Below, piece by piece: positions 15,983-64,000 of a stretch of DNA of 64,000 nt. The stretch is from positions 79,435 through 143,434 of the forward strand of contig JAFDGZ010000002.1 in assembly GCA_019309045.1 (NCBI GenBank). The letters are read 5' to 3'. Source of the stretch: Deltaproteobacteria bacterium (lineage in GTDB: Bacteria > Desulfobacterota > Syntrophobacteria > BM002). The notes below the pieces were generated by a model. That model saw only the letters and a list, made by a program, of their open reading frames with translations, made no database searches and had not been told where the DNA came from. Positions within the stretch are counted from its first letter, which is position 1. Each line of letters starts with the position of its first letter. A program made the translations under genes and the position numbers.

Positions 15983-16161
15983 AAAAAACCTCCTCTGCAT
16001 CAAGTTGAACTGGAATGTACGCTCGCCTCTAACATGGTCACAAAAAAATCATTTTATAAAAGTAACAGTGATTGGTGCAAATCCTCCATTTTCTAGAGAA
16101 ATGATCACCATCTTGGGAGCCACCCTCAGCAACCCTCAAACCATTCTTGCTTTCATATGTC

Positions 16162-16628
16162 TTCTCAGCCCAACAGGTTGAAAGATCTTGTCAGTAATGA
16201 CTCGACAGCCGCCTTCGCTTCGGCAACCGTCTGTACCAGAGCAATCGCACAATCTATGTTGAAGATGGCGTCTGGGATACTCGATCCGGCGGGTGCCATA
16301 GCTCCCGTCAGCATCATAGTCCCACCCACAATTCCTGGAGAGCCTTGGCGGTTTCTATTATAGTGTCTCTGCCATAAGTGACAAGGATTTTCTTCCCGGC
16401 AATCTTCTCGGCGGTATCACCAATCAGCAAAGTCAACCACAGGCTGTTATTCTGGAGAATGGCTGCCACCATGTGCTTCTGAGCGTCTGTTGTCACTTGC
16501 AGAATTCTTCCTGCCTGCGGCGCACATGCCTGATAGTCGCTGTTGACGTCCAGGCAGACTTCAGCGCTTGTACTGTACCAGGTGAAGATCCTGATTTTCT
16601 TAGAACCACTGCCTTGAAACAGCGGCGC
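16162..16628 (-). pseudogene. possible degraded or frameshifted gene downstream of the MBL hydrolase (two abutting coding-like frames)
   Basis: Frame 1 (16628-16314) reads ...KKIRIF...KKILVTYGRDTIIETAKALQELWVGL*. A second frame (16311-16162) continues MMLTGAMAPAGSSIPDAIFNIDCAIALVQTVAEAKAAVESLL. Neither has a proper ATG or RBS; the junction lies in a CCCACCC run. Confidence 0.2.
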
Positions 16629-17312
16629 TCAAAGTTCCAGAGACTCTCCAGGTTTCAGGACGGTGGTCTTTATGGAAGTCTCCTGTTCGACTCGCTCTTT
16701 CCAGGCTACGGGGTCCTGTCTGATCATTTCAAAGGTGTCGTAATGGATGGGCAGCACCTGTTTGGGCTGAATCAGCTTGACGGCACGCAGGGCGTCCTCG
16801 GGACCCATGGTAAAGTTGTCCCCAATAGGCAAGACAGCCAGGTCAATACCCTCTTCACCTATAAGTTTCATGTCGTAGAACAGACCGGTGTCACAGGCGT
16901 GATAGATTTTCTTGCCTTCCACATAAAAGAGAAAACCGCAAGGATTTCCTCCATAGGAGCCGTCTGGAAGAGCGGAGCCATGCTGAGCAATAGTCAGTTT
17001 CAGACGGCCCCATGGGTAGTCAAAAGCGCCACCAATGTGTTGCGGATGGACATTATCGACACCCTGCTTGAGCAGCCAATCGTGAATCTCGAAATTGGCA
17101 ACTACCTTGGCGCCAGTGCGCTTGGCAATTTGAATAGTGTCACCCAGATGGTCGCCGTGACCGTGGGAGACAAAGATGTAATCCGCAGGGATTTGCTCGG
17201 GATCCACAGGCGCCAGGGGATTGCCGCTGATGAAAGGGTCAACCAGGAGACTGGTACCATTGGTTTCAATCAGGAGACAGGCGTGGCTATACCAGGTAAC
17301 CTTGATGCTCAT
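16629..17312 (-). CDS. MBL-fold metallo-hydrolase
   Basis: HGHGDHLGD metal-binding motif and the WYSHACLLIE N-terminal beta strand. RBS GGAGG before ATG 17312. Confidence 0.85.
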   Translation of the reverse strand: MSIKVTWYSHACLLIETNGTSLLVDPFISGNPLAPVDPEQIPADYIFVSHGHGDHLGDTIQIAKRTGAKVVANFEIHDWLLKQGVDNVHPQHIGGAFDYPWGRLKLTIAQHGSALPDGSYGGNPCGFLFYVEGKKIYHACDTGLFYDMKLIGEEGIDLAVLPIGDNFTMGPEDALRAVKLIQPKQVLPIHYDTFEMIRQDPVAWKERVEQETSIKTTVLKPGESLEL

Positions 17313-17469
17313 AGGAACCTCCTTGTTGGATGTTGACATACCTTCTGTCAGATGAACCAAGAGAGTCTTATGCTACACACCTTAAACACTACAGGGCCAA
17401 ATGGCAACAAACTGGCGCAACCCGGCTCTGGGCTTGAGGGCTCTGCTTCCCCAGGAAATGACGCTCAGC

Positions 17470-33773: not shown

Positions 33774-35939
33774 CTAGTGCAGACCAAAAAGCCGCCCTCC
33801 CTGGTAGATGGCCAAGGCCACCAGCCAGGCGAGCAGTACAGAATAGCCTATGCTGAAAGCGGTCCATTTCCAGGAATTGGTTTCTCTGCGTATTACTGCT
33901 ACGGTTGCCAGACATGGCACGTAAATGAGCACAAATGCCATAAGGGCATACGCCTTTAAAGGAGTCATGCCAGATGCACGCAGAGAACGCTGCAGGGCTT
34001 CACTTTTCTGGTCGGCGTCAGCTCCTACTGCATAGAGCACTCCCAGGGTGCTGACAACTATTTCTTTGGCCACAAAGCCGGTAAGAACTGCCACGCTCGT
34101 GCGCCAGTCGAAGCCGAGAGGAGCGAATATCGGCTCCACAGCATGCCCCAGTCTGCCAAGGTAGCTATTTGCCAACCTGGCTCTCTCACGCTCCACTTCT
34201 GAGAGGACTTGCGGGGCACTGTCCATGCCACCAGGAAGCTGCTGGGTGACTGCCGCTGCTGAGGATTTTCTGGCTGCAAAGTCGTGGGAAGCTGCGTTAG
34301 AGGTGGCCTCGCCTCTCGGGAAAGCAGCAAGGAACCAGATGAGTACGGAGCCAACCAGTATTACCCCACCCATCTTGCGCAGAAAGATGACGCCTCGGTC
34401 CCACATGTGAATGAGCAGGCTTTTCAAGGTGGGCACCCGGTAGGGTGGCAGCTCCATGACAAAAGGAGCCACCTCTCCGCGAAAGAGAGTTACCCTGAAC
34501 AGTTTGCCCATTATAATTGCCAGCACGATGCCAAGTAGATAGATGCTGAAGATGACATTGCCTGCATGCAGGCCAAAGAAGGTTCCTGCGAGCAGGACAT
34601 AAACCGGCAGGCGGGCAGAACAGCTCATAAGGGGGTTGATAAGGATCGTCAGGATTCGATCTCTCTCACTTTCCAGGGTTCTGGTGGCCATGATTGCCGG
34701 AGCATTGCAGCCGAAGCCCATGAGCAGCGGGATGAAAGACTTGCCGTGGAGCCCTATGAGATGCATTACTCTGTCCATGATAAAGGCGGCTCTGGCCAGG
34801 TAGCCGGTGTCTTCGAAAAGGGCGATGCAGAAAAAGAGCAGCAGGATGTTGGGCAAAAAGATAATTACACTTCCCACACCAGCAAGGGCTCCATTTACCA
34901 GCAGATCACGAAGCAGGCCGGCTGGCAGCTGGGCGGCAAGAAAGTCGCCGAGCCAACCGATGGCCGCCTCAATCCACTCCATAGGATAGCTGCCCAGAGT
35001 AAAGGTCAACTGGAACATGGCCCAGATGAGAAGGATAAATATGGGGAAGCCAAGGACTCTATTGGTGAGCAAGAGATCCACCTGCCTGGAGAGATCGAAC
35101 CTGCTAACGGCCGAGACCTTCAGGACCTCCTTGAGGGCACCGCCTATGAAGCCGTAGCGCTGGTCGGTCAGCACCATTTCCGGGTCGTCATGGTAGAAAT
35201 CCAGCAACCTCTTGCGGCTTGCTTCAGCCTGGGCGAGAATCTGACTGCCTATGCCTCCAAGAGTTTTTATCTCCTCCCGGACGGCGCTGTCGTTTTCCAG
35301 CAGCTTCACCGCCAACCAACGAGTAGAGAAGCGTGATCCTATGGAAGGATCCTGCCAGATTACATCCTGGATGTTCTTTATTTCTTTTTCCAGTTCCTGA
35401 CCATAAGAGATGTGAATGTGGCGGCTTACAGTGTCCAGATCTTCGGCCACCTCCACCATCTTGTCGAGAAGCTCTGTTGTGCCCTGGTTTCTTTTGCCCA
35501 CGGTGAAGACAACAGGCACACCGAGCAGGGTGCCCAGTCTGTCAGAGTCGATGTGAAAGCCGCGGGCCTTGGCCACGTCGGCCATATTAAGAACCAGTAT
35601 CAGTTTTACGCCGAGCTCGATCAGTTGAGTGGCGAGATAGAGATTGCGCTCTAGATTGGAGGCATCCACCACATCAACTACCACATCAGGCTTGGCATCT
35701 ATCAGGTAATTGCGGGCGACAATTTCCTCCACCGAGTAGGCAGTGAGGCTGTAGGTACCTGGCAGGTCCACAATGCGCAGCTGTCTGCCTTTATGGCGTA
35801 TGGTGCCTTCCTTTTTTTCAACCGTCACCCCGGGCCAGTTGCCCACGTGCTGGCGAGTGCCAGTCAGATTGTTGAAGATGGTAGTCTTGCCCGAGTTTGG
35901 ATTTCCAGTAAGGGCAACGGTAATAAGACGATGTTTCAC
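33774..35939 (-). CDS. feoB: ferrous iron transporter FeoB (G-domain + membrane domain)
   Basis: GNPNSGKTT G1 motif, DLPGTYSL G3 motif, and a polytopic C-terminal region. Confidence 0.9.
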   Translation of the reverse strand: MKHRLITVALTGNPNSGKTTIFNNLTGTRQHVGNWPGVTVEKKEGTIRHKGRQLRIVDLPGTYSLTAYSVEEIVARNYLIDAKPDVVVDVVDASNLERNLYLATQLIELGVKLILVLNMADVAKARGFHIDSDRLGTLLGVPVVFTVGKRNQGTTELLDKMVEVAEDLDTVSRHIHISYGQELEKEIKNIQDVIWQDPSIGSRFSTRWLAVKLLENDSAVREEIKTLGGIGSQILAQAEASRKRLLDFYHDDPEMVLTDQRYGFIGGALKEVLKVSAVSRFDLSRQVDLLLTNRVLGFPIFILLIWAMFQLTFTLGSYPMEWIEAAIGWLGDFLAAQLPAGLLRDLLVNGALAGVGSVIIFLPNILLLFFCIALFEDTGYLARAAFIMDRVMHLIGLHGKSFIPLLMGFGCNAPAIMATRTLESERDRILTILINPLMSCSARLPVYVLLAGTFFGLHAGNVIFSIYLLGIVLAIIMGKLFRVTLFRGEVAPFVMELPPYRVPTLKSLLIHMWDRGVIFLRKMGGVILVGSVLIWFLAAFPRGEATSNAASHDFAARKSSAAAVTQQLPGGMDSAPQVLSEVERERARLANSYLGRLGHAVEPIFAPLGFDWRTSVAVLTGFVAKEIVVSTLGVLYAVGADADQKSEALQRSLRASGMTPLKAYALMAFVLIYVPCLATVAVIRRETNSWKWTAFSIGYSVLLAWLVALAIYQGGRLFGLH

Positions 35940-36178
35940 TCGGACTCCCCAGAGTGTTTTTCCATGAGTACGTGTTCAGCCTCATCAACTCGCAGAGACA
36001 CATGATATCCTTTGACAATGAGTTCGATGGGATCCCTGAGCGGGGCATATTTTTCAACCAGCACCTCTGTGCCGCGAATAAACCCCATTTCCTGCAAACG
36101 TTTCCTGAAAGGACCACTGCCATTCAGTCTGACGATTACCCCACGTTCACCTTCTTTGAAGCGGCTCAATGGTAACAT
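35936..36178 (-). CDS. feoA: FeoA (SH3-like) protein
   Basis: 80-aa FeoA domain (GERGVIVRLNGSGPFRKRLQEMGFIRGTEVLV). RBS AGGAAA before ATG 36178. Overlaps the feoB start by 4 nt. Confidence 0.8.
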   Translation of the reverse strand: MLPLSRFKEGERGVIVRLNGSGPFRKRLQEMGFIRGTEVLVEKYAPLRDPIELIVKGYHVSLRVDEAEHVLMEKHSGESE

Positions 36179-36276
36179 GTCAATTTCCTGTGTCTTTGCT
36201 CTGCTGATCATTGTGTTGACATCCGTCACCTCCGCCACAATCTCCTGTGCTGGCGAGCTGGCGTCAGGTAAATGGT

Positions 36277-36984
36277 TCAAGTCTCCAGTTTGTCTTGCGG
36301 CAAATTGTTGCGGGGAGAGACGAGAATCTTGTGGCCCAGGCCGTGTCCCAAGGCCAGGCGACTGCCTCGGAAGGCAAGAATAATGGGTCCGGGAGCACTC
36401 GATTTGATGACTTCCACTATAGTTCCGGGTGTAAGCCCCATTTCTGCCAACCGCTGTTGCACCTGACGGCCGCCAGCCAGGCGCTCGATGTATACCTTTT
36501 CGCCGGGCAGCACAAAAGACAGAGGCACCACAGGTTGTCTCTGTTTGCGGCATCTGGCGCAAATCCCGTAGAGTTCCATCTTATGGTGCAGCAAGGAAAA
36601 GTTGTATTGAAGGGCAATTTGCCTTTGCAGTGCTTCCATTTCAGGGTTGTGAAATTCAAGTATTCTACCGCACTTGGCGCAGATCAGGTGATCGTGGTGC
36701 CATCCTATATGGCGATGCTCATATTGGAGCTGCTGTCCTTCGAAATGCTTCTTGAAGGCATAGCCGTAGCGACAGAGCAGATCAAGCGTTTCAGTGATGA
36801 ACTGCTCATCGAAATTCTCACCCCTTTGCCGCAATTGTTCTCGCAGGTCACTGGCGGTCACATGGTCAGGAGCACGCAGGAATGCTTCGAGAACCTTCAA
36901 ACGTTTGTCGCTCTCATTGAGGCCGTGCTCCAGGCAGATTGCCGTAAATTCCTCTTTTTCCCGCTGATGAAGCTTCTCAATCAT
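36277..36984 (-). CDS. Fur-family transcriptional regulator fused to a C-terminal FeoA/SH3-like domain
   Basis: N-terminal Fur domain (winged helix; HHDHLICAKCGRILEF and C..C metal site). Residues from about 155 onward form a FeoA-like domain (GEKVYIERLAGGRQVQQRLAEMGLTPGTIVEVI). One continuous frame with no stop. Confidence 0.75.
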   Translation of the reverse strand: MIEKLHQREKEEFTAICLEHGLNESDKRLKVLEAFLRAPDHVTASDLREQLRQRGENFDEQFITETLDLLCRYGYAFKKHFEGQQLQYEHRHIGWHHDHLICAKCGRILEFHNPEMEALQRQIALQYNFSLLHHKMELYGICARCRKQRQPVVPLSFVLPGEKVYIERLAGGRQVQQRLAEMGLTPGTIVEVIKSSAPGPIILAFRGSRLALGHGLGHKILVSPRNNLPQDKLET

Positions 36985-36985
36985 A

Positions 36986-37510
36986 CTACCTCGTAACTCC
37001 TTGCTGATCCCTGGCAGATGTTTCCTTTTCCGCAGGATTGTATGTCTGGCCCCGCCTGGAAACCAGGTTGAGGGAAGAGTGATGCGCTCTGCACTTGGCG
37101 CAGTAGCCATATACTTCGAGTTTGTGAGCGGTTACCAAAAAATTATACTGCCTTCCCAGCTTTTCTTCCAAAACAGCCATTGAGTTGTCAATGAACTCGA
37201 CAATTTTGTCGCATCCCAAACAGCGCAAGTGACAGTGGTGATCGTGTCCATAGATGTGTTCGTAGTGCATGTGACCGTCCTGGAAAAAAGCCTCCTGGAT
37301 GAGGCCGCACTCGAGAAGCAGAGGGATAGTGCGATAAATGGTAGCTTTAGAGATTTTCTCATTTCGGCGTTGCAGCTCATGATAGAGTTCGTCCACGTCG
37401 AAATGGTCATGGGTGGCAAAGATGGTCCTTATGACCTGTTCACGTTCAGGGGTATTCCGAAGTTTCTTCTGTCTGATGAATTCACGGAAGATTTCAATTT
37501 CGTTTTTCAT
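36986..37510 (-). CDS. fur: Fur-family transcriptional regulator
   Basis: Fur DNA-binding helix (TPEREQVIRTIFATHDHFDVDELY) and metal sites HHCHLRCLGC...CAKC. ATG 37510 with a GAGG RBS. Confidence 0.8.
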   Translation of the reverse strand: MKNEIEIFREFIRQKKLRNTPEREQVIRTIFATHDHFDVDELYHELQRRNEKISKATIYRTIPLLLECGLIQEAFFQDGHMHYEHIYGHDHHCHLRCLGCDKIVEFIDNSMAVLEEKLGRQYNFLVTAHKLEVYGYCAKCRAHHSSLNLVSRRGQTYNPAEKETSARDQQGVTR

Positions 37511-38192
37511 TGGAACCTCACAACAAAAAATGCGCCCTTTGGCAAACAAACCTCGTGGCTGCCTTGGTGCAATCTTAGGCAACCACCGCGAGCTACTGTT
37601 ATCAGAACCACGGAGGCAAGCAGTGGGCTTGACAGCCTCCTGGGATCAACTTCGAAAAATTATTGCAAGCATTTCTCATTAACCGAAAGGCCATGCTGTT
37701 GTCAAGGAAAAACTGAAATTTACCGATACTCCTACTTTTAGAAAATTTGCCAGAAAGTTCCCCTGAATAGTATGAACAACTTGTTGTAGCCAAGTGTGGA
37801 TCTTAGTTTAACATATTCTCAATAAAAGGAAATCCTATCTCCAGTCTGTTGCTGTGCAGGGGGTCCATTATGGCGATGTCCTCTCTTGCAGAAGGTTCAG
37901 GTAATTGTCTCGGGTATTGATGCCCTGCACAGAGGTACCTCAGGATGGTGCCGCGGTCAGCTCTGCCCAGGAAGGGCATCAGGGACACTTAAACTAAAGG
38001 GCTCTGAAGGCCATTATGACAACAGCATGGTCTGCAGTATTGTGAGCGATGGCAAGTTGTTTGGCCTGGGTGAAGAAGTACCCAGAGTTATCTGGATTTT
38101 CTCAGCGCTGAGTAGCGCGGCGGCCCGAGGTGTTGATGGCTCGAGCGAACTCCTCATGGATTGACGGGCGAAAATAGTGTATTTGTGAAGTT

Positions 38193-52911: not shown

Positions 52912-55479
52912 ATGATGATAACCGAGAGACCCCTCTTTTCCTGGGCGCTGAAATATAATCGTGGGCTTCAGGGGCTACTTGTCTTGCTTATTGTGGTGGC
53001 GGTGTTCTTACGTGTCTTGCCCCTGGAAATGCAGAAGCGCATAGTCAACACTGCCATTGGCCTGGAGGATCTTCACGCCCTTTTCATATACTGCGGCTTT
53101 TACCTGGCGGCAGTGGTACTGGCAGGATTGCTGAAATATGTAATCAATGTACTGCAAGGCTATATTGGTCAAAAAGTGCTTTTCGAAATGCGCACCCAAC
53201 TATACGATCACATTCTCCAGCTGCCACTTCCCTTTTTTCGCAAAACACCGGCTGGCATGGTGATCAGTTCGCTAACTTCAGAGCTTGCCTCGGTGGGTGT
53301 CTTTCTGGGAAGTGCCCTGGCCGTGCCAATAATCAATGGGCTTACCCTTCTTGCCTTTGCCGGCTATATGCTGCACCTCAATCCTCTGCTGGCAGTGGTG
53401 AGCCTGTCAATCTATCCGCTGGAGATTCTAGTGATCCCAGTGCTGCAGAAACGTTTCAATGAACTAAATCGCGACCGCGTGGATACAACCAGACTATTCA
53501 GCAATGTGATCGGTGAAGCTGTCTCCGGCATCCACGAGGTTCACGGCAATGGCAGTTACCCGATTGAGAACGAGAAATTTGGCCGCCAGGCAGCCAGACT
53601 CTTCAATCTACGGCACCGGATGAACATCTACAAGTTTGGCATCAAGTTCACCAACAACTTTTTCCAGAATATGGGCCCTTTCATTCTTTTCCTGCTCGGT
53701 GGTTACCTCGCCATCGAAGGACGCTTTGACCTTGGCGCCCTGGTGGCGTTTCTCTCTGCCTATGAAAAGCTCTATGATCCATGGAAGGAGCTCATGGATT
53801 ACTATCAGGCCTTTCAGGACAGCCGGGTGCGATATCGCCGTGTTATGGAGTACTTCGAGGGACGACCCGAATTTGTTCTGAAGCCGACAGGCCGCAAGCC
53901 CTATGAACTCCAGGGCGCCATAGAGGTGCAAGATCTCAGTTACCTGGTAGACGAAAACACCACACTGCTGGAAGGAGTTTCCCTGTCCGTGCAGCCGGGA
54001 GAACAGCTGGCAGTAGTGGGATTTTCTGGCAGCGGCAAGAGCACCCTGGCCATGATCCTTGGGCAACTCTATTCGTACCATCGCGGGCACGTGCTCATTG
54101 ACGGCACAGAACTGAAGGGGCTGAGCAAACTGGATGTGAATGAGAACGTGGGCTACATCAGCCAGTTTCCCTTTATTTTCGAAGGCACCATCCGCGAGAA
54201 TCTTCTTTATGGCTGCCAGGCACTCGTGCTGGCAGAAGCGGGGAGCGCCAGGGCACTGCCTGATTATAATAGGGTGCTGGAACTCGTCCATCAGGTGGGC
54301 CTTGCTGATGATGTGCTGCGCTTTGGGCTCAACACCGTATTGTCCCATGAGTATGATCGGGACCTGGTGAGCCGTCTCATCAAAGTACGGCTCCTGTTTC
54401 ACCAGCGCTGGGCTGAGGCGCTGGCCCAGCAGGTGGAATTTTTTGATCTGCACCAGTATATGCGGGAGTGCAGCGTCCGCCGCAACATTCTTTTTGGAGA
54501 GCCCTTGCGAGAAGATTTTGAATTCGAGCGATTACCTACCAATCAGGTTTTTCGGAATTTTCTCTCGGAAGTGGAGCTCATTGAGCCACTGCTAAGCCTC
54601 GGTATAAATCTGGCCAAGCAGACAGTGTTACTGCTGCGAGACCTGGGCGATGACGCCTTCTTTTTTGAGGCAAGCCCCATACCCCGAGAACAGCTTCCCA
54701 GGTACAGTCAGCTGGTGGATCGGTTGACGCGTGAAGGAAAACAACCGCTCTCATCAGAAGATGAAAGGCTGCTGCTCTTGCTGGCTCTCCATTTTACCCC
54801 TGCACGCCATAAAATGGTGGCCCTGTCCGAAGAACTGGAGAAGCGCATTCTGGCAGCGCGCCTGCAGTTTATCGCCAACATTGGCAAGCAGGATCTGAGT
54901 AGATGCTACCTGGGCATAGACGGCATGAGCCATCCGGAACTGATGGACCCGGAGAAAAGACAAGCTTCCCCTGATTTTATGTTCTACTGTCCGTTCGAGT
55001 TCCTTTATGGGCAGAGTATTCTGAACAATGTACTCTTCGGTCGGGTAAAGCGTGATCAACCGGATGCCCTAGAAGAGGTGCAGCGGCTGGTTGTGCAACT
55101 GCTGGAAGAGGAGAACCTTCTGGAGAAGATTCTAGATCTCGGCCTCGACTTCCAGGTGGGCAGCAAGGGAGATCGTCTTTCCGGGGGGCAGAAGCAGAAG
55201 ATTGCCCTGGCGCGTGGCCTTTTGAAGGACCCCCACATTCTCATACTCGATGAGGCCACAGCGAGCCTGGACAACACTTCGCAGGCGAGAGTCCAGGAAT
55301 TGCTGAAGACACAACTGCGAGGGAAGACTACGGTGGTTGCTGTGGTCCATCGTCTGGACATGGTGCAAGATTACGACCAGATTGTCCTGTTGAAAACAGG
55401 CAAAATAGCAGAAATAGGCACATATAAGGATCTGATGGCCCGCAAAGGAGCATTTTATGAACTCGTTCAAGGAAACTGA
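52912..55479 (+). CDS. ABC exporter (TMD-NBD fusion) with ~330-aa insertion and repeated Q-loop-like motifs inside the NBD
   Basis: 6-TM ABC_membrane domain; Walker A GFSGSGKST; Q-loop region TIRENLLYG, then SVRRNILFG and SILNNVLFG repeats; signature LSGGQKQKIALARGLL; Walker B ILILDEATASLD; H-loop VVAVVHRL. Confidence 0.85.
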   Translation: MMITERPLFSWALKYNRGLQGLLVLLIVVAVFLRVLPLEMQKRIVNTAIGLEDLHALFIYCGFYLAAVVLAGLLKYVINVLQGYIGQKVLFEMRTQLYDHILQLPLPFFRKTPAGMVISSLTSELASVGVFLGSALAVPIINGLTLLAFAGYMLHLNPLLAVVSLSIYPLEILVIPVLQKRFNELNRDRVDTTRLFSNVIGEAVSGIHEVHGNGSYPIENEKFGRQAARLFNLRHRMNIYKFGIKFTNNFFQNMGPFILFLLGGYLAIEGRFDLGALVAFLSAYEKLYDPWKELMDYYQAFQDSRVRYRRVMEYFEGRPEFVLKPTGRKPYELQGAIEVQDLSYLVDENTTLLEGVSLSVQPGEQLAVVGFSGSGKSTLAMILGQLYSYHRGHVLIDGTELKGLSKLDVNENVGYISQFPFIFEGTIRENLLYGCQALVLAEAGSARALPDYNRVLELVHQVGLADDVLRFGLNTVLSHEYDRDLVSRLIKVRLLFHQRWAEALAQQVEFFDLHQYMRECSVRRNILFGEPLREDFEFERLPTNQVFRNFLSEVELIEPLLSLGINLAKQTVLLLRDLGDDAFFFEASPIPREQLPRYSQLVDRLTREGKQPLSSEDERLLLLLALHFTPARHKMVALSEELEKRILAARLQFIANIGKQDLSRCYLGIDGMSHPELMDPEKRQASPDFMFYCPFEFLYGQSILNNVLFGRVKRDQPDALEEVQRLVVQLLEEENLLEKILDLGLDFQVGSKGDRLSGGQKQKIALARGLLKDPHILILDEATASLDNTSQARVQELLKTQLRGKTTVVAVVHRLDMVQDYDQIVLLKTGKIAEIGTYKDLMARKGAFYELVQGN

Positions 55480-55990
55480 GAGTCAAACAAGAGCAGCAGC
55501 GGACGGCGAAAAAAGCGAGCTCGAGAAAGACCTGCAGGTGCTGCGCAATGTCCCTGCCTTTTCAGTGGTTCCTCTTGAAACCCTCAGACTCTATGCCTAC
55601 CTGAGCAGGCGGCTCTGCTATCGCCAGGGAACTTTCTTGTTTCGCCAGGATGAACCTGACTCCAGGGGTTATATTCTGGTTTCTGGCACTGCTCAATTAC
55701 TCAGAGAATACCCTGATCGCACGGTTGAACTGCAGGTGCTGAAAGAGGGAGATTTCTTTGGAGGTCTGGCTTTGCTGGCGGACATCAGGAGACTGTTTTC
55801 AGCCAGGGCTCTTACTACTGTGGAGTGTCTGACCCTGGACCGAGAGAGTTTTCGCAGACTGCTCAAGCAATTTCCGGAGGTGGGGATCAAGGTATTGGAG
55901 GTAATGGTCAACCGCGTGGTAAAGATGCAGGCGAGAGTATTGGAGGAATGCAGCAAGTATTCTGAGTACGGCAACATGAGCGTTGATTAA
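55457..55990 (+). CDS. stand-alone cyclic-nucleotide-binding (cNMP/CAP effector) domain protein, no HTH
   Basis: cNMP beta-barrel motifs FRQDEPDSRGYILVSGTAQL and GDFFGGLALL, with no DNA-binding domain. Overlaps the ABC gene by 23 nt. Confidence 0.8.
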   Translation: MNSFKETESQTRAAADGEKSELEKDLQVLRNVPAFSVVPLETLRLYAYLSRRLCYRQGTFLFRQDEPDSRGYILVSGTAQLLREYPDRTVELQVLKEGDFFGGLALLADIRRLFSARALTTVECLTLDRESFRRLLKQFPEVGIKVLEVMVNRVVKMQARVLEECSKYSEYGNMSVD

Positions 55991-56411: not shown

Positions 56412-56810
56412 ATGGATGAAGTGTTGAAAAACATGACTCTGGAGTTCTTTGGCACTGGCAGCCATAAAATCTCTGCCGATAAAATGCTGGAAAAAGAAAA
56501 TGCGGTGTTTCTAGACTTGCGCTCCAGAGAAGAAGCAGAAACGATCTCCATAAGCTTGAAACACCATGCCGGTATTATTGCCAAACACATTCCTATCAAT
56601 GAACTGAGCCACAGATTGGCAGAGCTGCCCAGGGACAAATTCATTGGTGTGTTTTGTCCGGCAAACGTCCGCTCAACCATGGCATATGTCTATCTTCTCA
56701 GCAAGGGGTTCACTCAGGTGCGAATAGTCGAAGGGGGCTATGCAGGACTCACCGAGGCCATACTGCCTGGAAAGGTGTGGACACAGGTGCAGTCGAAAAA
56801 AATTGGCTAG
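56412..56810 (+). CDS. rhodanese-like sulfurtransferase domain protein
   Basis: Active-site Cys loop VFCPANVRS. Single rhodanese domain of about 130 aa. Confidence 0.8.
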   Translation: MDEVLKNMTLEFFGTGSHKISADKMLEKENAVFLDLRSREEAETISISLKHHAGIIAKHIPINELSHRLAELPRDKFIGVFCPANVRSTMAYVYLLSKGFTQVRIVEGGYAGLTEAILPGKVWTQVQSKKIG

Positions 56811-56842
56811 TATGTTTGGTCTGCTGCGAGGGAGAACTACAC

Positions 56843-57643
56843 ATGTTAAAGCTCATTATAGTTGCAGGAATCATCTTTGTTCTGGCAATAGTCATGACCA
56901 TGGCAGGCAGAGGCGGCGGCAATTTTTATGTGCTGACATTGGTCCTTGCCGGTGTTCCCATGCATCAGGCTGCCACCACCGGACAGTTCATTCTTTTCAT
57001 GACTGCCTTTGCAGCCCTTATCATCTTTCAAAAACATAAGGTCGTTTCCTGGCCTCTCGCTCTGTTTATCGGCCCGCTAACGGCCCTGGCTGCTCTGGGC
57101 GGCGGTTATCTTTCGCACTGGTTCACTGGCTTTACCTTGAAGCTGATATTTTCTGCAATGCTGGCGCTTGCCGGCATGCTGATGCTCTTTCCAGTGCGGG
57201 AGAGGACCGACCAACCAGCGGTGAAGACAAGCCTTGGCCACTGGCGCCTCAAGTCGGCGGGTGAGACCTATCTGGTCAATCTATGGGTGGCGGTGCCCAT
57301 TATAGTGCTGTCCGGTTTTGGCTCAGGTATGGTTGGGGTCTCAGGGGGATCTTTTCTGGTGCCATTAATGGTACTGGCCTGCCAGGTGCCCATGCGTACT
57401 GCTGTTGGTACGGCCTCTTCTTTGATCGGAGCCACAGCCCTGATGGGCTTTCTCGGCCACGCGGCTCAGGGCGACTTTAATCCTAAATGGGCCATACCTT
57501 TAGCTGCGGTGACCATAATTGGCGGCATTCTAGGTGGAAAATTCGCCCTCAAGACGAAGCCAAAGAGCCTTAAGATGCTCTTTGCTTATACGACGCTATT
57601 GGCCGCTCTTTTTATGTTGGTCAATGCGTTCTATAATAGATAA
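56843..57643 (+). CDS. TauE/SafE family sulfite/anion exporter
   Basis: Two 4-TM repeats with G-rich motifs (MAGRGGGNFYV ... GMVGVSGGSFLVPL). RBS GAGGGAG before ATG 56843. Confidence 0.85.
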   Translation: MLKLIIVAGIIFVLAIVMTMAGRGGGNFYVLTLVLAGVPMHQAATTGQFILFMTAFAALIIFQKHKVVSWPLALFIGPLTALAALGGGYLSHWFTGFTLKLIFSAMLALAGMLMLFPVRERTDQPAVKTSLGHWRLKSAGETYLVNLWVAVPIIVLSGFGSGMVGVSGGSFLVPLMVLACQVPMRTAVGTASSLIGATALMGFLGHAAQGDFNPKWAIPLAAVTIIGGILGGKFALKTKPKSLKMLFAYTTLLAALFMLVNAFYNR

Positions 57644-57770
57644 AAGAAGGCTTGGTTTTTTAGGCTGCAATATATACGGGAAAGGGGTGATTGAGGAAAA
57701 CAGTGGAATGAATGCAGCTTGTGTGTGGTTGACAGAAAAATCCGTCTCAAACTGAGAGAGGAGGTTTTCC

Positions 57771-59195
57771 ATGTGGCGCCGGGGTTTGATACTCATTGTG
57801 ACAGCTATGGCAGTTTTGGGTCTGTGCTGCTCAATTGCAGTGGCACAGGAGAAAAGCGTGGTTGAGGAAATCCTGGATGTTCTTCGAAGTCAGGGCCAGA
57901 TCAGTGAAGAACAATACCATGAACTCCTGCAAAAGGCACAAGCGGAGGAGGCAAAAAGGGGAGAAACTAGGCAAGGGAAAGAGATTGGCAAACAAGAGCC
58001 TCATGCGACAAAAGGAGAAGAGACAGCTGCGGCAAAAAAAACAAAGGTAGCGATACCTATGTATGGTTACTGGAAAAATGGCTTGGCTTTCGAGAGTGCC
58101 GACCGGAAGTTTACCGCCAAAATCGGTGGCAGAATTAATGTTGACGCAGGTGAGGTTGATACAGATCATGATGTAAAGAAATTTTTTGACAACCAGTTCG
58201 GCAGCGGTGTCAATTTCCGCCGAGCACGGCTGTCTTTCGAGGCTACAATCTACCATGACATTATGCTCAAGTCAGAATATGATTTCACTTCCGGGGAGAC
58301 GAAATTCAAAGACGTTTATGTGGGCATGCGTGGACTTCCCTATGTGGGCACCTTGCGGATCGGCCATCAAAAGGAACCGTTTTCTTTAGAGGAAATAATT
58401 AGCGGCAACTACGTGACTTTTATGGAAAGGGCCTTGCCGAACGGTTTTGTTCCTGACCGCAACACGGGCCTGGGTTTGAACAACACAGTGCTTGACCGAC
58501 GCATGACCTGGGCAGTAGGCGGCTTCAGGGAAACTGATAATCAGGGCAGCGGTCTGGGGAATCCTGAGAACTATAATGTAACTGCCCGGGTAACAGGTTT
58601 GCCATGGTACCGAGATAAAGGGTCTAGGCTTTTGCATCTGGGACTTTCATACAGTCACAAGTTCGTGGACAAAGGTGGCACCGTGAGATTCCGTTCGCGT
58701 CCTGAAACTCAGCTTACTAGCGAGCGCTTTGTGGACACCGGCAGCATTCTAGCGGACGATGTCGATTTACTGGCGCCTGCAGCAGCAGTGGTTTTTGGTC
58801 CACTGTCTTTTCAGGGTGAATACATCTACAGCCATGTGGATCCCAAACAAGGGAGTAGCCTTGATTTCGACGGCTACTACATTTATGGCAGCTATTTTCT
58901 TACGGGTGAACATCGTTCTTACAGCACCTCGCATGGAGCCTTCTCGCGAATAAGACCGAAGAAGAATTTTCAGCTCCACGGCGGCGGTTGGGGCGCCTGG
59001 GAAGTGGCCTTGCGGTACTCGCACATGGACTTGGATGACGAGGATGTGGAAGGCGGCAAACTGTCAGACATCACAGCCGGGCTCAACTGGTATCTCAACC
59101 CGAGTGTTCGGATCATGTTCAACTACATCCACGCCGACCTCGATCATGTGGGCGATACCAACATATATCAGTCAAGATTCCAAATTAATCTTTAG
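57771..59195 (+). CDS. OprO/OprP-like phosphate/anion-selective outer-membrane porin
   Basis: Signal peptide; Porin_O_P-like features (FRRARLSFEATIYHD..., KFKDVYVGMRGLPYVGTLRIGHQKEPFSLEE). Confidence 0.8.
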   Translation: MWRRGLILIVTAMAVLGLCCSIAVAQEKSVVEEILDVLRSQGQISEEQYHELLQKAQAEEAKRGETRQGKEIGKQEPHATKGEETAAAKKTKVAIPMYGYWKNGLAFESADRKFTAKIGGRINVDAGEVDTDHDVKKFFDNQFGSGVNFRRARLSFEATIYHDIMLKSEYDFTSGETKFKDVYVGMRGLPYVGTLRIGHQKEPFSLEEIISGNYVTFMERALPNGFVPDRNTGLGLNNTVLDRRMTWAVGGFRETDNQGSGLGNPENYNVTARVTGLPWYRDKGSRLLHLGLSYSHKFVDKGGTVRFRSRPETQLTSERFVDTGSILADDVDLLAPAAAVVFGPLSFQGEYIYSHVDPKQGSSLDFDGYYIYGSYFLTGEHRSYSTSHGAFSRIRPKKNFQLHGGGWGAWEVALRYSHMDLDDEDVEGGKLSDITAGLNWYLNPSVRIMFNYIHADLDHVGDTNIYQSRFQINL

Positions 59196-59247
59196 TCTTG
59201 ACAAGGACTATATGCCATTCTAGCTTTATTCAATAAAGAAGCTATTT

Positions 59248-59715
59248 GTGGCCGGGGATGAAGGCGTGAGTGAATCGACTTACAGAGTTCGACGAATACT
59301 GCTGCCATTGAAATTTTCCCACGTAACCGACAATGCCTTTGCCACGGCATTGCGGCTGGCGAAATGCTGTCAGGCGCGCCTGCATATCCTCCATGTGCTG
59401 GATCACCGTTTGCGGCAGCCGGAGATAACAGAGGATGAAATTGCCGAGATAACTAAAGCGGCCGAAAAGGAGTTCCAGGAAAGATACCTGCCGCGTCTCG
59501 AAGGTTTCAAGGATTACGCCTTCAACTGCTGGGAGGGTGATCCGGCCATGGAAACAGCCAAGCTGGCCGACAGCATCGGGGCGGATTTTATTGTTGTGGG
59601 CTGCCACACCAGGCGCGACAGGCCGTCGCCAACCAGGCTGGGCGAGGTTGCCCTCGCCCTGCTGCAATGGGCCCCCTGCCCGGTCACTGTGGTACCGTGC
59701 GAAATTCATCGGTAG
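59248..59715 (+). CDS. universal stress protein (UspA family)
   Basis: ILLPLKFSH...ADFIVVGCHTRR...VALALLQWAPCPVTVVP matches the Usp ATP-binding fold. GTG start inferred. Confidence 0.75.
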   Translation: MAGDEGVSESTYRVRRILLPLKFSHVTDNAFATALRLAKCCQARLHILHVLDHRLRQPEITEDEIAEITKAAEKEFQERYLPRLEGFKDYAFNCWEGDPAMETAKLADSIGADFIVVGCHTRRDRPSPTRLGEVALALLQWAPCPVTVVPCEIHR

Positions 59716-60135
59716 GGTGCATTTCCCTCTTCGTTGTGCATATTCAATTTTGTTCTCTAAAGTACTTCTTCTGCCTTGCCAACCAGCCTGAGAGGCCAAT
59801 TGCCATTCCATACTGCTTCTTCGTGTAAAGTCCATCGTGAACAGATGTTAATTAACACCCATTTACTCCAGTTTTATATAATCCTTTAAAAATCACACAG
59901 TTAACTTCCTCTAACAGATCGCATCTGTTCAGGCATATATATTGCTGTTTCTTGGCCAGACAAAATTTCCGAGGCAAGGCACTGCCGTCCAGGCGTGTAT
60001 CGAACCTACAGAGCAGGAACTCTAAAAAAATGGTGAGGTGATGATTTGTTGGACGAACAAAGTGGAGGAGTTTGCTCGCGAGACTGTCCAAGGGTGGGTA
60101 CTGGTGCCAAATAGAAGATAAGGAGGAGGGTTCTG

Positions 60136-61089
60136 GTGAATATTGGCAGGAGGAGTTTTTTCAAGATCATCGGAGCTGCGGCCGGCGTCAAGGCCCTCAA
60201 TACCCCGGGCGGCGCTCTGGCAGCTGTGCCTCCGAAGCAATCAGCCGAGACCCTGGCATGTCTGGTTGATACCACTGTGTGTGTGGGCTGCCGCAAGTGT
60301 GAGGAGGCATGCAATGCAAGGAACAAGCTTGCCAAGCCTGCTGAGTCTTTTGAAGAGATGACCGTGCTCGAGAGTCCCCGCCGTCCAAATGAGAACTCTT
60401 ACACCGTGGTAAACAAGTACTACCCTCAACACATTGGCTCTCTCACCTGGCGCAAACGGCCTGTCTACGTGAAATTTCAGTGTATGCACTGCAATGATCC
60501 ATCCTGTGCGTCGGCCTGCATTGTGGGAGCATTGCACAAGGTGCCGCAGGGCCCCGTAGTCTATGACGTGAGCAAGTGCATAGGGTGTCGCTACTGCATG
60601 GTCGCCTGTCCATTTCAAATACCAGCATATGAATATCACAATCCCCTTACTCCTGAAGTGAGGAAATGCACTTTCTGCTTTGCACAGGTCAAAGATGGTG
60701 GTCTGCCGGCATGCGCCCAGGTGTGTCCCATGGAGGCTATCACCTTTGGCAGGAGATCTGAGCTCTTGCAGCTAGCGCGCTGGAAGATGAAGGAAAATCC
60801 TGGCAAGTATGTGGATCACATATATGGAGAGCAGGAGGTGGGCGGAACCTCGTGGCTCTACTTGGCGTCTGAACCCTTTGAAACCATTGGCTTTCCCAGG
60901 CTTGGAACCAAGCCGCCGCCGCGTTTGACTGAAACGATCCAGCATGGACTGTTCCGTTATTTTGCAGCGCCCGTAGGGCTGTATGTCTTGCTCGGCGGCA
61001 TAATGTGGGCCACGGGATTTTATGGCAAGTACAAGGATGAAACCAAAAAGAGCAGTAATTCCTCGGAGCAGCAAGGAGGCGCTTCATGA
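60136..61089 (+). CDS. Tat-exported 4Fe-4S ferredoxin-type subunit of a membrane-bound oxidoreductase (HybA/PsrB/NrfC-like) with C-terminal TM anchor
   Basis: Twin-arginine motif RRSFFK; four CxxCxxCxxxCP-type clusters; C-terminal hydrophobic helix. GTG 60136 after AGGAGGAGGG. Confidence 0.85.
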   Translation: MNIGRRSFFKIIGAAAGVKALNTPGGALAAVPPKQSAETLACLVDTTVCVGCRKCEEACNARNKLAKPAESFEEMTVLESPRRPNENSYTVVNKYYPQHIGSLTWRKRPVYVKFQCMHCNDPSCASACIVGALHKVPQGPVVYDVSKCIGCRYCMVACPFQIPAYEYHNPLTPEVRKCTFCFAQVKDGGLPACAQVCPMEAITFGRRSELLQLARWKMKENPGKYVDHIYGEQEVGGTSWLYLASEPFETIGFPRLGTKPPPRLTETIQHGLFRYFAAPVGLYVLLGGIMWATGFYGKYKDETKKSSNSSEQQGGAS

Positions 61090-62275
61090 ACTCACATGAA
61101 AGGGCCGCGCCAGTGCAAGAGAAGTTCCTCACACCAGGTGTCATGGTAATGCTTGCCTTCATGGCTATGGGATTCGCCTTTGCTATTGCTCGCTTCCTGT
61201 ACGGTATCGGTGCGGTTTCTAATTTGAACAACCAGTTCCCTTGGGGTATCTGGATCGCAGTGGATGTGGCGTCAGGGGTGGCCCTGGCCGCTGGAGGTTT
61301 CACCACAGGCGCCATCGCTTATGTCTTCAACCGGCGTGAGTTTCATGCAGTAATTCGTCCGGCCCTGCTCACTGCCATGTTGGGTTATACATTTGTGGTG
61401 CTGGCGCTTTTGGTGGACATTGGGCGCTACTGGAACATTACCAGTCCAATTTTTAACCACAACGGCAATTCGGTCCTCTTCGAAGTGGCTGTTTGCGTGA
61501 TGATATATTCAAACGTTCTATATATTGAATTTCTTCCTATAGTGGTGGAGCGCTTCAAAGGAAAGGTGAATTTGCCGGGGCCCCTGGCCCGGTTCAACCA
61601 GGCGGTGGAAGCGCTCCTGGCTTTTGCGGACAGGACCCTCGGCAAGGTCATGTTCCTCTTTATCATTGCCGGCATCGTACTTTCCTGCATGCATCAATCT
61701 GGGCTCGGCTCTCTCATGCTGATTGCTCCCTACAAGGTTCACCCCCTGTGGTATACGCCTATCCTGCCGTTGCTGTTTCTTTTGTCAGCCCTGGCTGCAG
61801 GCTATCCCATGGTAATCTTCGAGTCCATTATCGTGTCCAAGTCATTTGATCGCCAACCAGAAATGCAGGTGCTCACACCCTTAGCCAGGTATATGCCTGT
61901 GCTCATAGGAATTTATCTGGCCGTGAAGATCGGTGATATGTTGGTGCGCGGCACCTACGTCTATCTCTTTGACGGCAGCGTGCAGAGCAATGCCTTCCTT
62001 GTAGAGCTGTGGCCCTGCCCTTTGTGCTTCTTCTGTTCAAGAAGATCCGTCATTCGCCTGGCTGGCTCTTTTTTGCTTCCACCATCTATGTTCTAGGAGT
62101 GGTGTTGAATCGGATAAATGTCTTTGTGGTGAGCTATACACCACCTTATGTGATCAAATCTTACTTCCCCTCCGTGGGCGAGGTGGCCATAAGCGTTGGT
62201 TTTGTTGCCGCCCTGATGTTTCTTTATCGGGTTTTCGTATTCGTCTTTCCTGTGTTGGGCGAACGACCCAGAAAG
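61086..62275 (+). pseudogene. NrfD/PsrC-like polytopic quinone-interacting membrane subunit; reading frame interrupted (apparent -1 frameshift near 62007-62012)
   Basis: NrfD-family helices continue in a different frame from about 62009 (ALPFVLLLFKKIR...). The original frame ends in nonsense (WPCPLCFFCSRRSVIRLAGSFLLPPSMF*) at 62096. Confidence 0.7.
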
Positions 62276-64000
62276 ATGTCCACGGCGGTGCTCTTGCTGC
62301 TGGGAATCTCAGCACTGCTTTGGGGCCGCACTCAAGCGCTAGCCAGCGAAAATTCCTCCATACCCAAAAGCATCATGTCAGTCACCAGGCAGGAGTTTCC
62401 CTCAATTGCTGAGGCCCCTAAAGTCTGGGTTCTGAACAATCAGATAATCAACAGCTATTCTGATCTTTATGAATCAGTGCGTTTCATGCACAGCAAGCAT
62501 GCCAATGTCCTGAAAGATTGCACCATATGTCATCATCGGCTGCCAAAGAATGACAGTGACAAAATTGGTGAGCCGGTTTCACTGGAAAAGCTCAAAGAAA
62601 TGAAAAAAATGCCTGTTGGTTGCAGTGGCTGCCATAATCGACCCTTCAACAGGGAGCATCCGGAAATACCCGGCCTGAAAGGGGCATACCATCGGCTCTG
62701 CATCGAGTGTCACAGAGAGGCCGAACAGGTGCCACACGTCCGCGGCCCTGTGGTTTACAGTGCCATGGTAAGAGGCCCCATCGCCCGGACCCTGGACACC
62801 CGGGCCCCCACTGATTGTCTCTCCTGTCATGCCAAAAAGGTGCCTGATCATAGCAAACTGGTGCAGTTGCAAGGCACCACGGTTGATGCGGTCACTGTTA
62901 CCAAGACCTGTCTTTCCTGCCACGAGACGGAAGGAAAAGCCATTCTCAAGACCTCTCACTGGAAGTGGCAGGGACCCTCACCGTATACGGTTGGCTACGA
63001 GAAGCATATTGATCTGGGCAAGAGCAGCAAAACAATAAATAATTTCTGCATCAATCTCAATGGCAACTGGCCCAGATGCACCAGTTGCCATATCGGCTAT
63101 GGTTGGAAAGAGAAGCATTTCGACTTCAGCGATATGAGCAAGATCGATTGCCTGGTCTGCCATGACACCACTGGCACATACAAGAAGGCGCCACCTGGGG
63201 CGGGTTTCCCCAAGAAAGACGTGGACCTGGTACAGGCCCAGTCGGGCTACCTGCGGCAACAACTGTCACTTCAGGGGTGGGGGCGGTGACGCAGTAAAGC
63301 ACGGTGATATGAACTCTATTCTCACCAAGCCTTCCGGCAACTGCGACGTTCACATGGGGGTGGACGGCAAGGGAATGAATTTCCGCTGCCAGGATTGCCA
63401 CAAAACTCGCAACCACATGATTTCTGGCCGCAGCATCTCGGTGCCAGTAGCAGAGGGGGACCTTTCCTGTGAATACTGCCACACAGACAGACCCCATTTA
63501 GCAGACAGCCTCAAGGCCTATCACCTGAACAGGCACAGCAAGCATGTGGCCTGTCAGACGTGCCACATCCCGGTCTACTCCAAGTGCAAGCCCACGAAAG
63601 TCTATTGGGATTGGTCAACTGCAGGCAAAGATTTGCCGCATCATAAAGACAAATATGGCATGCCCACCTTCAAAAAGAAAAAGGGCAGTTTCAAGTGGCA
63701 GGAGGCAGCAAAGCCATCCTACTTCTGGTACAATGGCACGGTAAAGCGCTATATTCTGGGAGATAGGATCAACGCAAATGGTGTGACTCAGCTGACAAAG
63801 CCGGTGGGGGATATCAGTGATCCTGCCTCGAGAATATATCCCTTCAAGATCCATCGGGGCAGACAGATAAGCGATGCTGTGAACAAGTACCTGATTGCGC
63901 CGCAACTCTGGAAGGGCTTCTGGAAGCACTGGGATTGGGACAGGGCTGCCAGAAACGGTATGCGCTATGCTGGCCTGGACTACAGCGGCAAGTATGAGTT
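62276..64000 (+). pseudogene. periplasmic multiheme c-type cytochrome (at least 10 CxxCH motifs; octaheme-like), partial at window edge; apparent +1 frameshift near 63240-63250
   Basis: Signal-peptide-like MSTAVLLLLGISALLWGRTQALA. Motifs CTICHH, CSGCHN, CIECHR, CLSCHA, CLSCHE, CTSCHI, CLVCHD; after a frame switch CQDCHK, CEYCHT, CQTCHI. No stop separates it from the NrfD-like frame. Confidence 0.7.

Follow-up and report, generated by a model that had tools for sequence, protein, structure and literature searches.

The 64,000-nucleotide (nt) stretch analyzed here (the window) comes from contig JAFDGZ010000002.1 of the Deltaproteobacteria bacterium assembly GCA_019309045.1, and the region of interest occupies positions 60136-64000 of its forward strand. 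Open reading frames (ORFs) were listed, the three frames were translated, and parts of the window were compared with Pfam and NCBIfam profiles. Two genes were found: one encodes an iron-sulfur (FeS) protein, and the other joins an NrfD-like membrane domain to a tetraheme cytochrome and an Otr-type octaheme domain. Together they probably constitute a respiratory operon in which the second gene, a fusion conserved among relatives, seems to have been inactivated recently. An earlier reading made from the letters alone (the sequence-only reading) had proposed a quinone-linked periplasmic oxidoreductase module of three genes, consisting of an FeS subunit targeted to the twin-arginine translocation (Tat) pathway, an NrfD-like membrane subunit and a multiheme cytochrome. 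This composition was upheld, with an Otr-kind cytochrome passing the TIGR04315 cutoff, and the number of genes was revised to two. The coordinates of all features are collected in Table 1.

The FeS gene starts with GTG, preceded by the ribosome-binding site AAGGAGGAGG, and its stop codon overlaps the ATG of the fusion gene (ATGA), which begins at position 61086. The encoded protein carries a twin-arginine signal (RRSFFK, residues 5-10), four ferredoxin-type groups that together hold 16 cysteines, and a C-terminal hydrophobic anchor, in agreement with the Tat-targeted 4x[4Fe-4S] subunit recognized earlier. It matched Fer4_11 at 67 bits, together with related Pfam families, and scored 347.6 bits against HmcB (cutoff 420) and 244.6 bits against HybA (cutoff 263). 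Since both scores lie below the cutoffs, the protein resembles both families and is an equivalog of neither. In 148 loci, the gene preceding the fusion encodes a protein 70-75% identical to it.

The three frame segments of the second gene were joined into a reconstruction of 971 amino acids, which was searched against a protein collection. The best 120 protein clusters covered 98-100% of the reconstructed fusion at 67-76% identity, and 119 of them measured 1,060-1,115 amino acids (about 1,085 for the family). In the DNA fetched for homologous loci, 91 loci spanned the whole query, and 89 of these encoded the fusion in a single frame. The NrfD-like domain predicted by the sequence-only reading was recognized from its first fragment alone, which matched PF03916 at 69 bits (gathering score, 25.8 bits). 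The HybB profile (NF008133, 377 positions) was matched at positions 2-292 before the first frame break and 293-375 after it, and hence continuously across the break. Although this profile was covered end to end, the scores of the window (368.9 bits) and of the homologue P0001 (372.8 bits) fell short of its equivalog cutoff of 450 bits, and the membrane domain reached 280 bits against HmcC (cutoff 550). The domain ends in a conserved FPVLG-x-x-P-[KR]-K motif.

Codon-level DNA alignments with orthologous loci were used to size the two lesions. At the first site (nine loci), exactly 10 nt and three conserved residues were missing and the frame changed from 0 to 2. The family sequence EVLFGVILPF corresponded to EL/VALPF in the window (the slash marks the break), with a placement ambiguous by 1-2 nt, and hydropathy located the deletion in a transmembrane (TM) helix of residues 303-321. 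Translation from 61086 yields a truncated product of 336 amino acids, which terminates 29 codons past the first site. At the second site (11 loci), exactly 20 nt were missing and seven residues were gone (KVAQNVG, including the conserved VAQNVG motif just before a CX3CH heme), such that the family sequence DVDLVKVAQNVGRPSR corresponded to DVDLV/RPSR and the frame changed from 2 to 0. The displaced middle frame stops at a TGA (63287-63289). Both regions had the same length in all aligned relatives. The sequence-only reading had placed single-nucleotide breaks at homopolymers near 62007-62012 and 63240-63250. The first position was correct (frame 0 to 2 near 62009), and the frame change at the second was confirmed, with the break lying about 10 nt further upstream (between 63231 and 63232); single-nucleotide homopolymer indels were ruled out by the DNA alignments with orthologues.

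Given that the deletions add up to 30 nt, the last segment returns to the frame in which the gene starts, and this return does not rescue translation. Decoding of both changes into a full-length protein by programmed ribosomal frameshifting would agree with that total, but three and seven residues belonging to stretches of invariant length in the family are missing at the sites, no slippery heptamer was found at either one, 89 of the 91 orthologous loci need no frameshifting, and the stop codon follows closely on the first site. We regard such decoding as extremely unlikely. Since both deletions shift the frame and translation of the window copy ends at 62096, neither a functional membrane subunit nor a functional cytochrome would be made.

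The window contains 11 heme motifs before its end, in line with the large cytochrome of at least 10 motifs running past the window that had been noticed earlier. Seven belong to the Otr domain, including one CX3CH. Full-length homologues contained 13 heme motifs (4 + 8 + 1) in 117 of 119 cases, and about 115 codons with two more motifs are expected by homology beyond the window end. The reconstructed Otr domain scored 446.1 bits and that of P0001 519.9 bits against TIGR04315 (cutoff 375). Its reading frame is interrupted in the window by the 20-nt deletion, and the stretch around this deletion corresponds to the gap between profile positions 124 and 142. P0001 aligned with the Otr of Shewanella oneidensis (PDB 1SP3) over about 405 residues (E = 1.8e-137). 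Through this alignment, the lysine of LGKSSKTINNFC in the first part of the domain was matched to Lys56 of 1SP3 (RGKKNSINNFC), the lysine ligand of the active-site heme. The CGNNCH motif, previously regarded as unusual, proved to be a conserved family feature, as a CX3CH (CGMNCH and variants) was present in most of the 120 homologues, whereas 1SP3 has CGSCH at this place.

As seen in the three-frame translation, and as stated in the sequence-only reading, the displaced frame stays open where the NrfD homology ends and continues into the cytochrome. Two explanations had been offered, a fusion or internal initiation at the ATG at 62276. The junction segment consists of a conserved methionine, a hydrophobic helix (an eleventh TM helix or an internal signal-anchor) and an AxA-type signal-peptidase-like site, and its family motif reads FPVLG-x-x-P-K-K-M-S, followed by about 18-20 hydrophobic residues and a small-x-small site. 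An AlphaFold2 model of P0001 placed a helix at residues 398-419, directly after TM10, with low confidence (mean predicted local distance difference test score, pLDDT, of 60); the model was too uncertain for a fold search, and only this helix was used. Of 93 distinct loci, 85 have ATG as the junction codon, and eight have ATT, CTT, CTC or TTG instead. The junction was preceded by Shine-Dalgarno-like motifs in 7 of these 93 loci, compared with 105 of 106 for the start of the gene itself. Because the orthologues contain an intact single ORF and a ribosome-binding site is lacking at the junction, two genes rather than three are read here. Comparison across the family, with more than 119 homologous clusters, strongly supports a conserved NrfD-cytochrome fusion rather than read-through or internal initiation, and the latter was rejected at the family level. 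Intact separate genes in orthologues had also been considered beforehand; the orthologues proved to be intact and fused.

A gene fission under way was considered as well, in which the 336-residue NrfD protein and a cytochrome translated from the ATG at 62276 would function separately, with the former helix 11 serving as a Sec signal peptide. The segment MSTAVLLLLGISALLWGRTQALA followed by SE does resemble a complete signal peptide with an AxA site, and separate NrfD and cytochrome genes occur in Ignavibacteria, Melioribacter and Zixibacteria relatives. However, no clear GGAGG-type ribosome-binding motif precedes 62276, in keeping with the rarity of Shine-Dalgarno-like motifs at the junction throughout the family. 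Moreover, the truncated NrfD protein would be devoid of most of TM8 and all of TM9-10, and the second deletion cuts the Otr domain after its third heme, with loss of the conserved motif and everything downstream. Fission is thus very improbable.

The remaining question was whether the deletions are real. On balance, a genuine and recent pseudogene is judged more likely than not, with deletions that are probably biological rather than assembly errors. The alternative is that the gene is intact in the organism and that the 10- and 20-nt gaps are artefacts of assembly or consensus polishing, caused for instance by low local coverage or strain heterogeneity. The broken copy showed no deviation at 247 family-invariant columns, so the lesions must be either very recent or not real; the round lengths of the gaps and the lack of an independent sequence of the species in the collections searched also suit an artefact. 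By contrast, when all 64 kb were segmented with a frame-aware, codon-usage Viterbi procedure, frame switches on the same strand without a gene boundary were confined to the fusion gene, apart from one other candidate region that had no Pfam support; further candidates proved to be normal boundaries between genes. No other clear frameshift was therefore seen in the remaining 60 kb, which indicates that the assembly is not generally indel-ridden. The usual frameshifts from sequencing errors are single-nucleotide indels without loss of residues, and consensus errors seldom take the form of multi-nucleotide deletions at sites without repeats. Two broken orthologous loci differed from the window in this respect: L065, from a long-read metagenome-assembled genome (MAG), had four shifts with no residues lost, and L138 had one shift. 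L065 (CAVRQG010000038.1, 10001-12935) was the closest genome locus by best segment (77%), and its pattern is that expected of long-read consensus errors. A rough rate argument allowed for a second indel in a brief neutral decay with zero hits at about 550 constrained sites, and does not decide between the two explanations.

Several points weigh against a genuine pseudogene within a membrane-anchored fusion. Two independent deletions without other damage are somewhat unexpected. The lesions are known from one assembly only, and a search for an allele of the same species in genome and metagenome collections returned best matches of 75-80% amino acid identity, with none above 80%. Exact look-ups of the FeS protein, under both readings of its start codon, and of the porin gave no record. 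The 3' end of the fusion gene and its downstream neighbours fall outside the window. Given the mean pLDDT of the P0001 model, the topology rests on homology to the ten-helix HybB and on hydropathy. An assembly artefact accordingly keeps some weight, though we consider it the less likely explanation.

Table 1. Features of the respiratory locus and its upstream neighbourhood (window coordinates).
Feature	Position	Strand	Evidence or remark
Rhodanese	56412-56810	+	Upstream of operon
TauE/SafE sulfite-exporter-family protein	within 56654-57643	+	Upstream of operon
Phosphate-selective-type porin O/P	57771-59195	+	Upstream of operon
Universal stress protein (Usp)	59248-59715	+	Upstream of operon
Possible sigma-54 -24/-12 promoter element, AGGCATATATATTGCT	59931..59946	+	2 mismatches; weak evidence
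HybA/HmcB-like Tat-exported 4x[4Fe-4S] subunit, intact, 317 amino acids	60136..61089	+	Pfam, NCBIfam, sequence
NrfD-like (HybB/HmcC-type) domain, N-terminal part, original frame, TM1 to start of TM8	61086..62008	+	PF03916, HybB profile, homologue alignment
10-nt deletion site relative to all aligned orthologues, inside helix TM8	62008..62009	+	Protein and DNA alignment, hydropathy
Rest of NrfD-like domain (remaining TM8, TM9, TM10), displaced frame	62009..62275	+	HybB 293-375 of 377, alignment
Out-of-frame tail for a ribosome starting at 61086	62010..62096	+	Stop codon TAG 62094-62096
Junction segment, MSTAVLLLLGISALLWGRTQALA	62276..62344	+	Homologue conservation, AlphaFold2 of P0001
Linker and tetraheme cytochrome c3/c7-like domain	62345..62845	+	Cytochrome_C7, Cytochrom_CIII; partial TmcA and HmcA matches
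Tetraheme motifs CTICH, CSGCH, CIECH, CLSCH	from 62519, 62621, 62699, 62816	+	Motif scan
Otr-type octaheme domain, first part	62846..63232	+	TIGR04315 positions 2-124
Otr first-part motifs CLSCH, CTSCH, CLVCH	from 62909, 63077, 63149	+	Motif scan
20-nt deletion site relative to all aligned orthologues	63231..63232	+	Protein alignment; DNA alignment with 11 loci
Otr-type octaheme domain, second part, original frame	63234..64000	+	Cytochrome_cB 153.9 bits, TIGR04315 142-400; CGNNCH (CX3CH, 63252-63269), then CQDCH, CEYCH, CQTCH; runs off window end

Members of the fusion family were found in JGI, ENA, NCBI and Logan assemblies of Desulfobacterales, Desulfosarcinaceae, Desulfococcaceae, Desulfarculaceae and the Olavius Delta-1 symbiont, where the fusion is labeled either "Ni/Fe-hydrogenase cytochrome b subunit" or "tetrathionate reductase family octaheme cytochrome". 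One contig bears two copies of the fusion (L010 and L014). Three loci from Thermodesulfobacteriota MAGs (L060, L063 and L064) encode an NrfD-tetraheme protein only, of about 620 amino acids with four hemes. These share with the present family the FPVLG junction, the eleventh hydrophobic helix and the c3-like tetraheme domain fused to NrfD, but they end after the tetraheme domain without an Otr domain and have no junction methionine. In Ignavibacteria, Melioribacter (Melioribacteraceae), Zixibacteria and Nitrospiraceae relatives (L066-L077 and L150-L155), a stop codon follows the NrfD part. Judged from these gene structures, the relatives seem to form a graded series of steps toward the fusion, from separate genes through NrfD-tetraheme to NrfD-c3-Otr.

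A common set of genes was shared by 20 long homologous loci: a divergent sigma-54 PAS activator, the FeS gene, the fusion, a monoheme cytochrome c of 109 amino acids, a Tat molybdenum (Mo)-oxidoreductase of about 748 amino acids, a PsrB-like FeS protein and rhodaneses. In these loci (L002, L004 and 18 others), the conserved downstream genes lie at +3.3 to +8 kb from the fusion start, and two of the proteins have rhodanese domains; in L004, a second set of regulator, cytochrome c and Mo-oxidoreductase was observed about 8 kb further on. No hydrogenase subunits or HmcA were present among the conserved neighbours of the 20 loci. This gene content, together with the rhodanese, TauE/SafE-family protein, porin and Usp genes upstream in the window, points to sulfur chemistry.

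The components of the fusion are all of known kinds. The C-terminal catalytic domain is homologous to the Otr of S. oneidensis (1SP3), and the GK lysine and the GGGGDAVKHGD motif are conserved. The Shewanella protein, however, is soluble and periplasmic, stands alone at about 440 amino acids and has its own signal peptide, whereas the Otr domain here is the tail of a membrane protein of about 1,085 amino acids, with a tetraheme domain before it, an extra heme after it and CX3CH instead of CXXCH at heme 4; the window copy is in addition broken. The FeS protein and the NrfD-like domain resemble HybA/HybB of Escherichia coli hydrogenase-2 and HmcB/HmcC of Desulfovibrio, which likewise combine a Tat 4x[4Fe-4S] protein bearing a C-terminal anchor with a ten-helix NrfD-type subunit without heme b (HybB profile covered from 2 to 375 of 377). 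HybB-type NrfD subunits have 10 TM helices (PMC8076601). All four scores nevertheless lie below the cutoffs (HybB, 369/450; HmcC, 280/550; HybA, 245/263; HmcB, 348/420), and an Hmc complex was further contradicted by the HmcA match of 53-61 bits (cutoff 400). Furthermore, the conserved neighbours include no hydrogenase subunit or HmcA, the genes upstream in the window include no [NiFe] hydrogenase subunits, and NrfD is covalently fused to its cytochrome partner. The same logic is found in NrfABCD and MccACD, in which an NrfC/NrfD-type FeS and membrane quinol module supplies a periplasmic multiheme reductase, by way of an intermediate electron-transfer cytochrome (NrfB) in the case of NrfABCD. 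The present system differs from both in that its catalytic family is Otr rather than NrfA or MccA, its NrfD class has 10 helices rather than 8, and its cytochrome parts and membrane subunit form one polypeptide. No published description of an NrfD-Otr fusion was found in literature searches, and a catalogue of NrfD-like subunits published in 2021 (PMC8076601) does not contain the words fused, fusion, octaheme or Otr.

Based on these homologies, a working model can be proposed for the intact complex. The HybA/HmcB-like protein would be exported by the Tat pathway with four [4Fe-4S] clusters and would dock at the periplasmic side of the NrfD-like domain. This domain would exchange electrons with the menaquinone pool. 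By equivalence to ActC, both ends of the NrfD-like domain are probably cytoplasmic. With the tenth helix ending in the cytoplasm, the basic P-K-K loop and the eleventh helix would return the chain across the membrane and thereby place the cytochrome part in the periplasm. There it would mature into a c3-like tetraheme wire and an Otr octaheme catalytic domain, in which lysine ligates the active-site heme and one heme is bound by CX3CH, with a thirteenth heme at the C-terminus; the AxA-like site after helix 11 may allow its release by signal peptidase. Menaquinol would then serve as electron donor, with the NrfD/FeS pair and the c3 hemes relaying electrons to the active site of the Otr domain, where a periplasmic sulfur or nitrogen oxyanion would be reduced. 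Tetrathionate, nitrite and hydroxylamine are in-vitro substrates of the S. oneidensis Otr. The most economical model appears to be a periplasmic reductase that is linked to menaquinol and acts on a sulfur (or nitrogen) oxyanion.

It is tentatively suggested, as a reading that may or may not hold, that the family represents an undescribed type of respiratory complex, in which NrfD and its whole 13-heme partner are made as one polypeptide by way of an internal signal-anchor, possibly cleaved at the AxA site. Together with the Mo-oxidoreductase, the rhodaneses and the small cytochrome c, this complex would form a sulfur-intermediate (tetrathionate/thiosulfate-type) island widespread in marine Desulfobacterales and Desulfarculales, which one lineage is losing here. 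Many anaerobic respiratory complexes have at their core an NrfD-type subunit, which couples them to quinone and possibly translocates ions, and a conserved covalent fusion would fix which reductase the HybB-like module serves. For Otr, an enzyme without a settled physiological role, it would also provide a dedicated quinol-linked partner in sulfate reducers that abound in sediments, and it raises the question of how a membrane protein is assembled when 13 hemes come after an internal export signal. The window copy itself adds less, as either a recent loss or an assembly-error flag that would otherwise be annotated as three or four fragments. A pseudogene or artefact of this sort is ordinary, and the fusion family that it exposed is the more useful lead.

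A gap of 420 nt lies 5' of the FeS gene and contains the possible sigma-54 element, whose pattern was not enriched across the whole window. Of 75 loci, 16 had an element of the form GGCA[CT]-N5-6-TGC[AT] in the 350 nt preceding the FeS gene, compared with 2.2% of random 350-nt windows; loci with a similar element include L062, L063, L085, L088, L118 and L124, and a divergent sigma-54 PAS activator is encoded in these loci as well. A scan for sigma-70 promoters and terminators gave nothing exceeding chance. The regulator position of the homologous loci is not shared by the window, and the sulfur-oxyanion-flavoured neighbourhood upstream of the gap (56412-59715, forward strand) is absent from those loci.

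Elsewhere in the window, the coding-like signal switched frame at 16040-16628 on the reverse strand, downstream of a metallo-beta-lactamase-fold gene (16629-17360); an asparaginase-like frameshift suspected at about 16.2-16.6 kb of this strand was dropped, as neither piece had a Pfam match; the pieces may be small genes or parts of a decayed one. The iron-uptake cluster at 33774-37582 on the reverse strand comprises an ORF of 721 amino acids (33774-35939), upstream of which lie small FeoA-domain ORFs and two ORFs with Fur domains; the ORF at 36277-37110 combines Fur and FeoA domains. The messy coding signal at 35.9-37.6 kb comes from small Fur and FeoA genes rather than from pseudogenes, and the atypical codon usage of the cluster confused the segmentation. 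On the forward strand, an ATP-binding cassette (ABC) exporter of 855 amino acids (52912-55479) contains an unmatched insertion of about 180-260 residues that divides its nucleotide-binding domain: ABC_tran matched residues 353-466 and resumed at about 650-700, and the MsbA profile matched at 7-435 and then at 420-568. It is followed by an overlapping gene for a cyclic-nucleotide-binding protein of 177 amino acids (55457-55990, forward strand).

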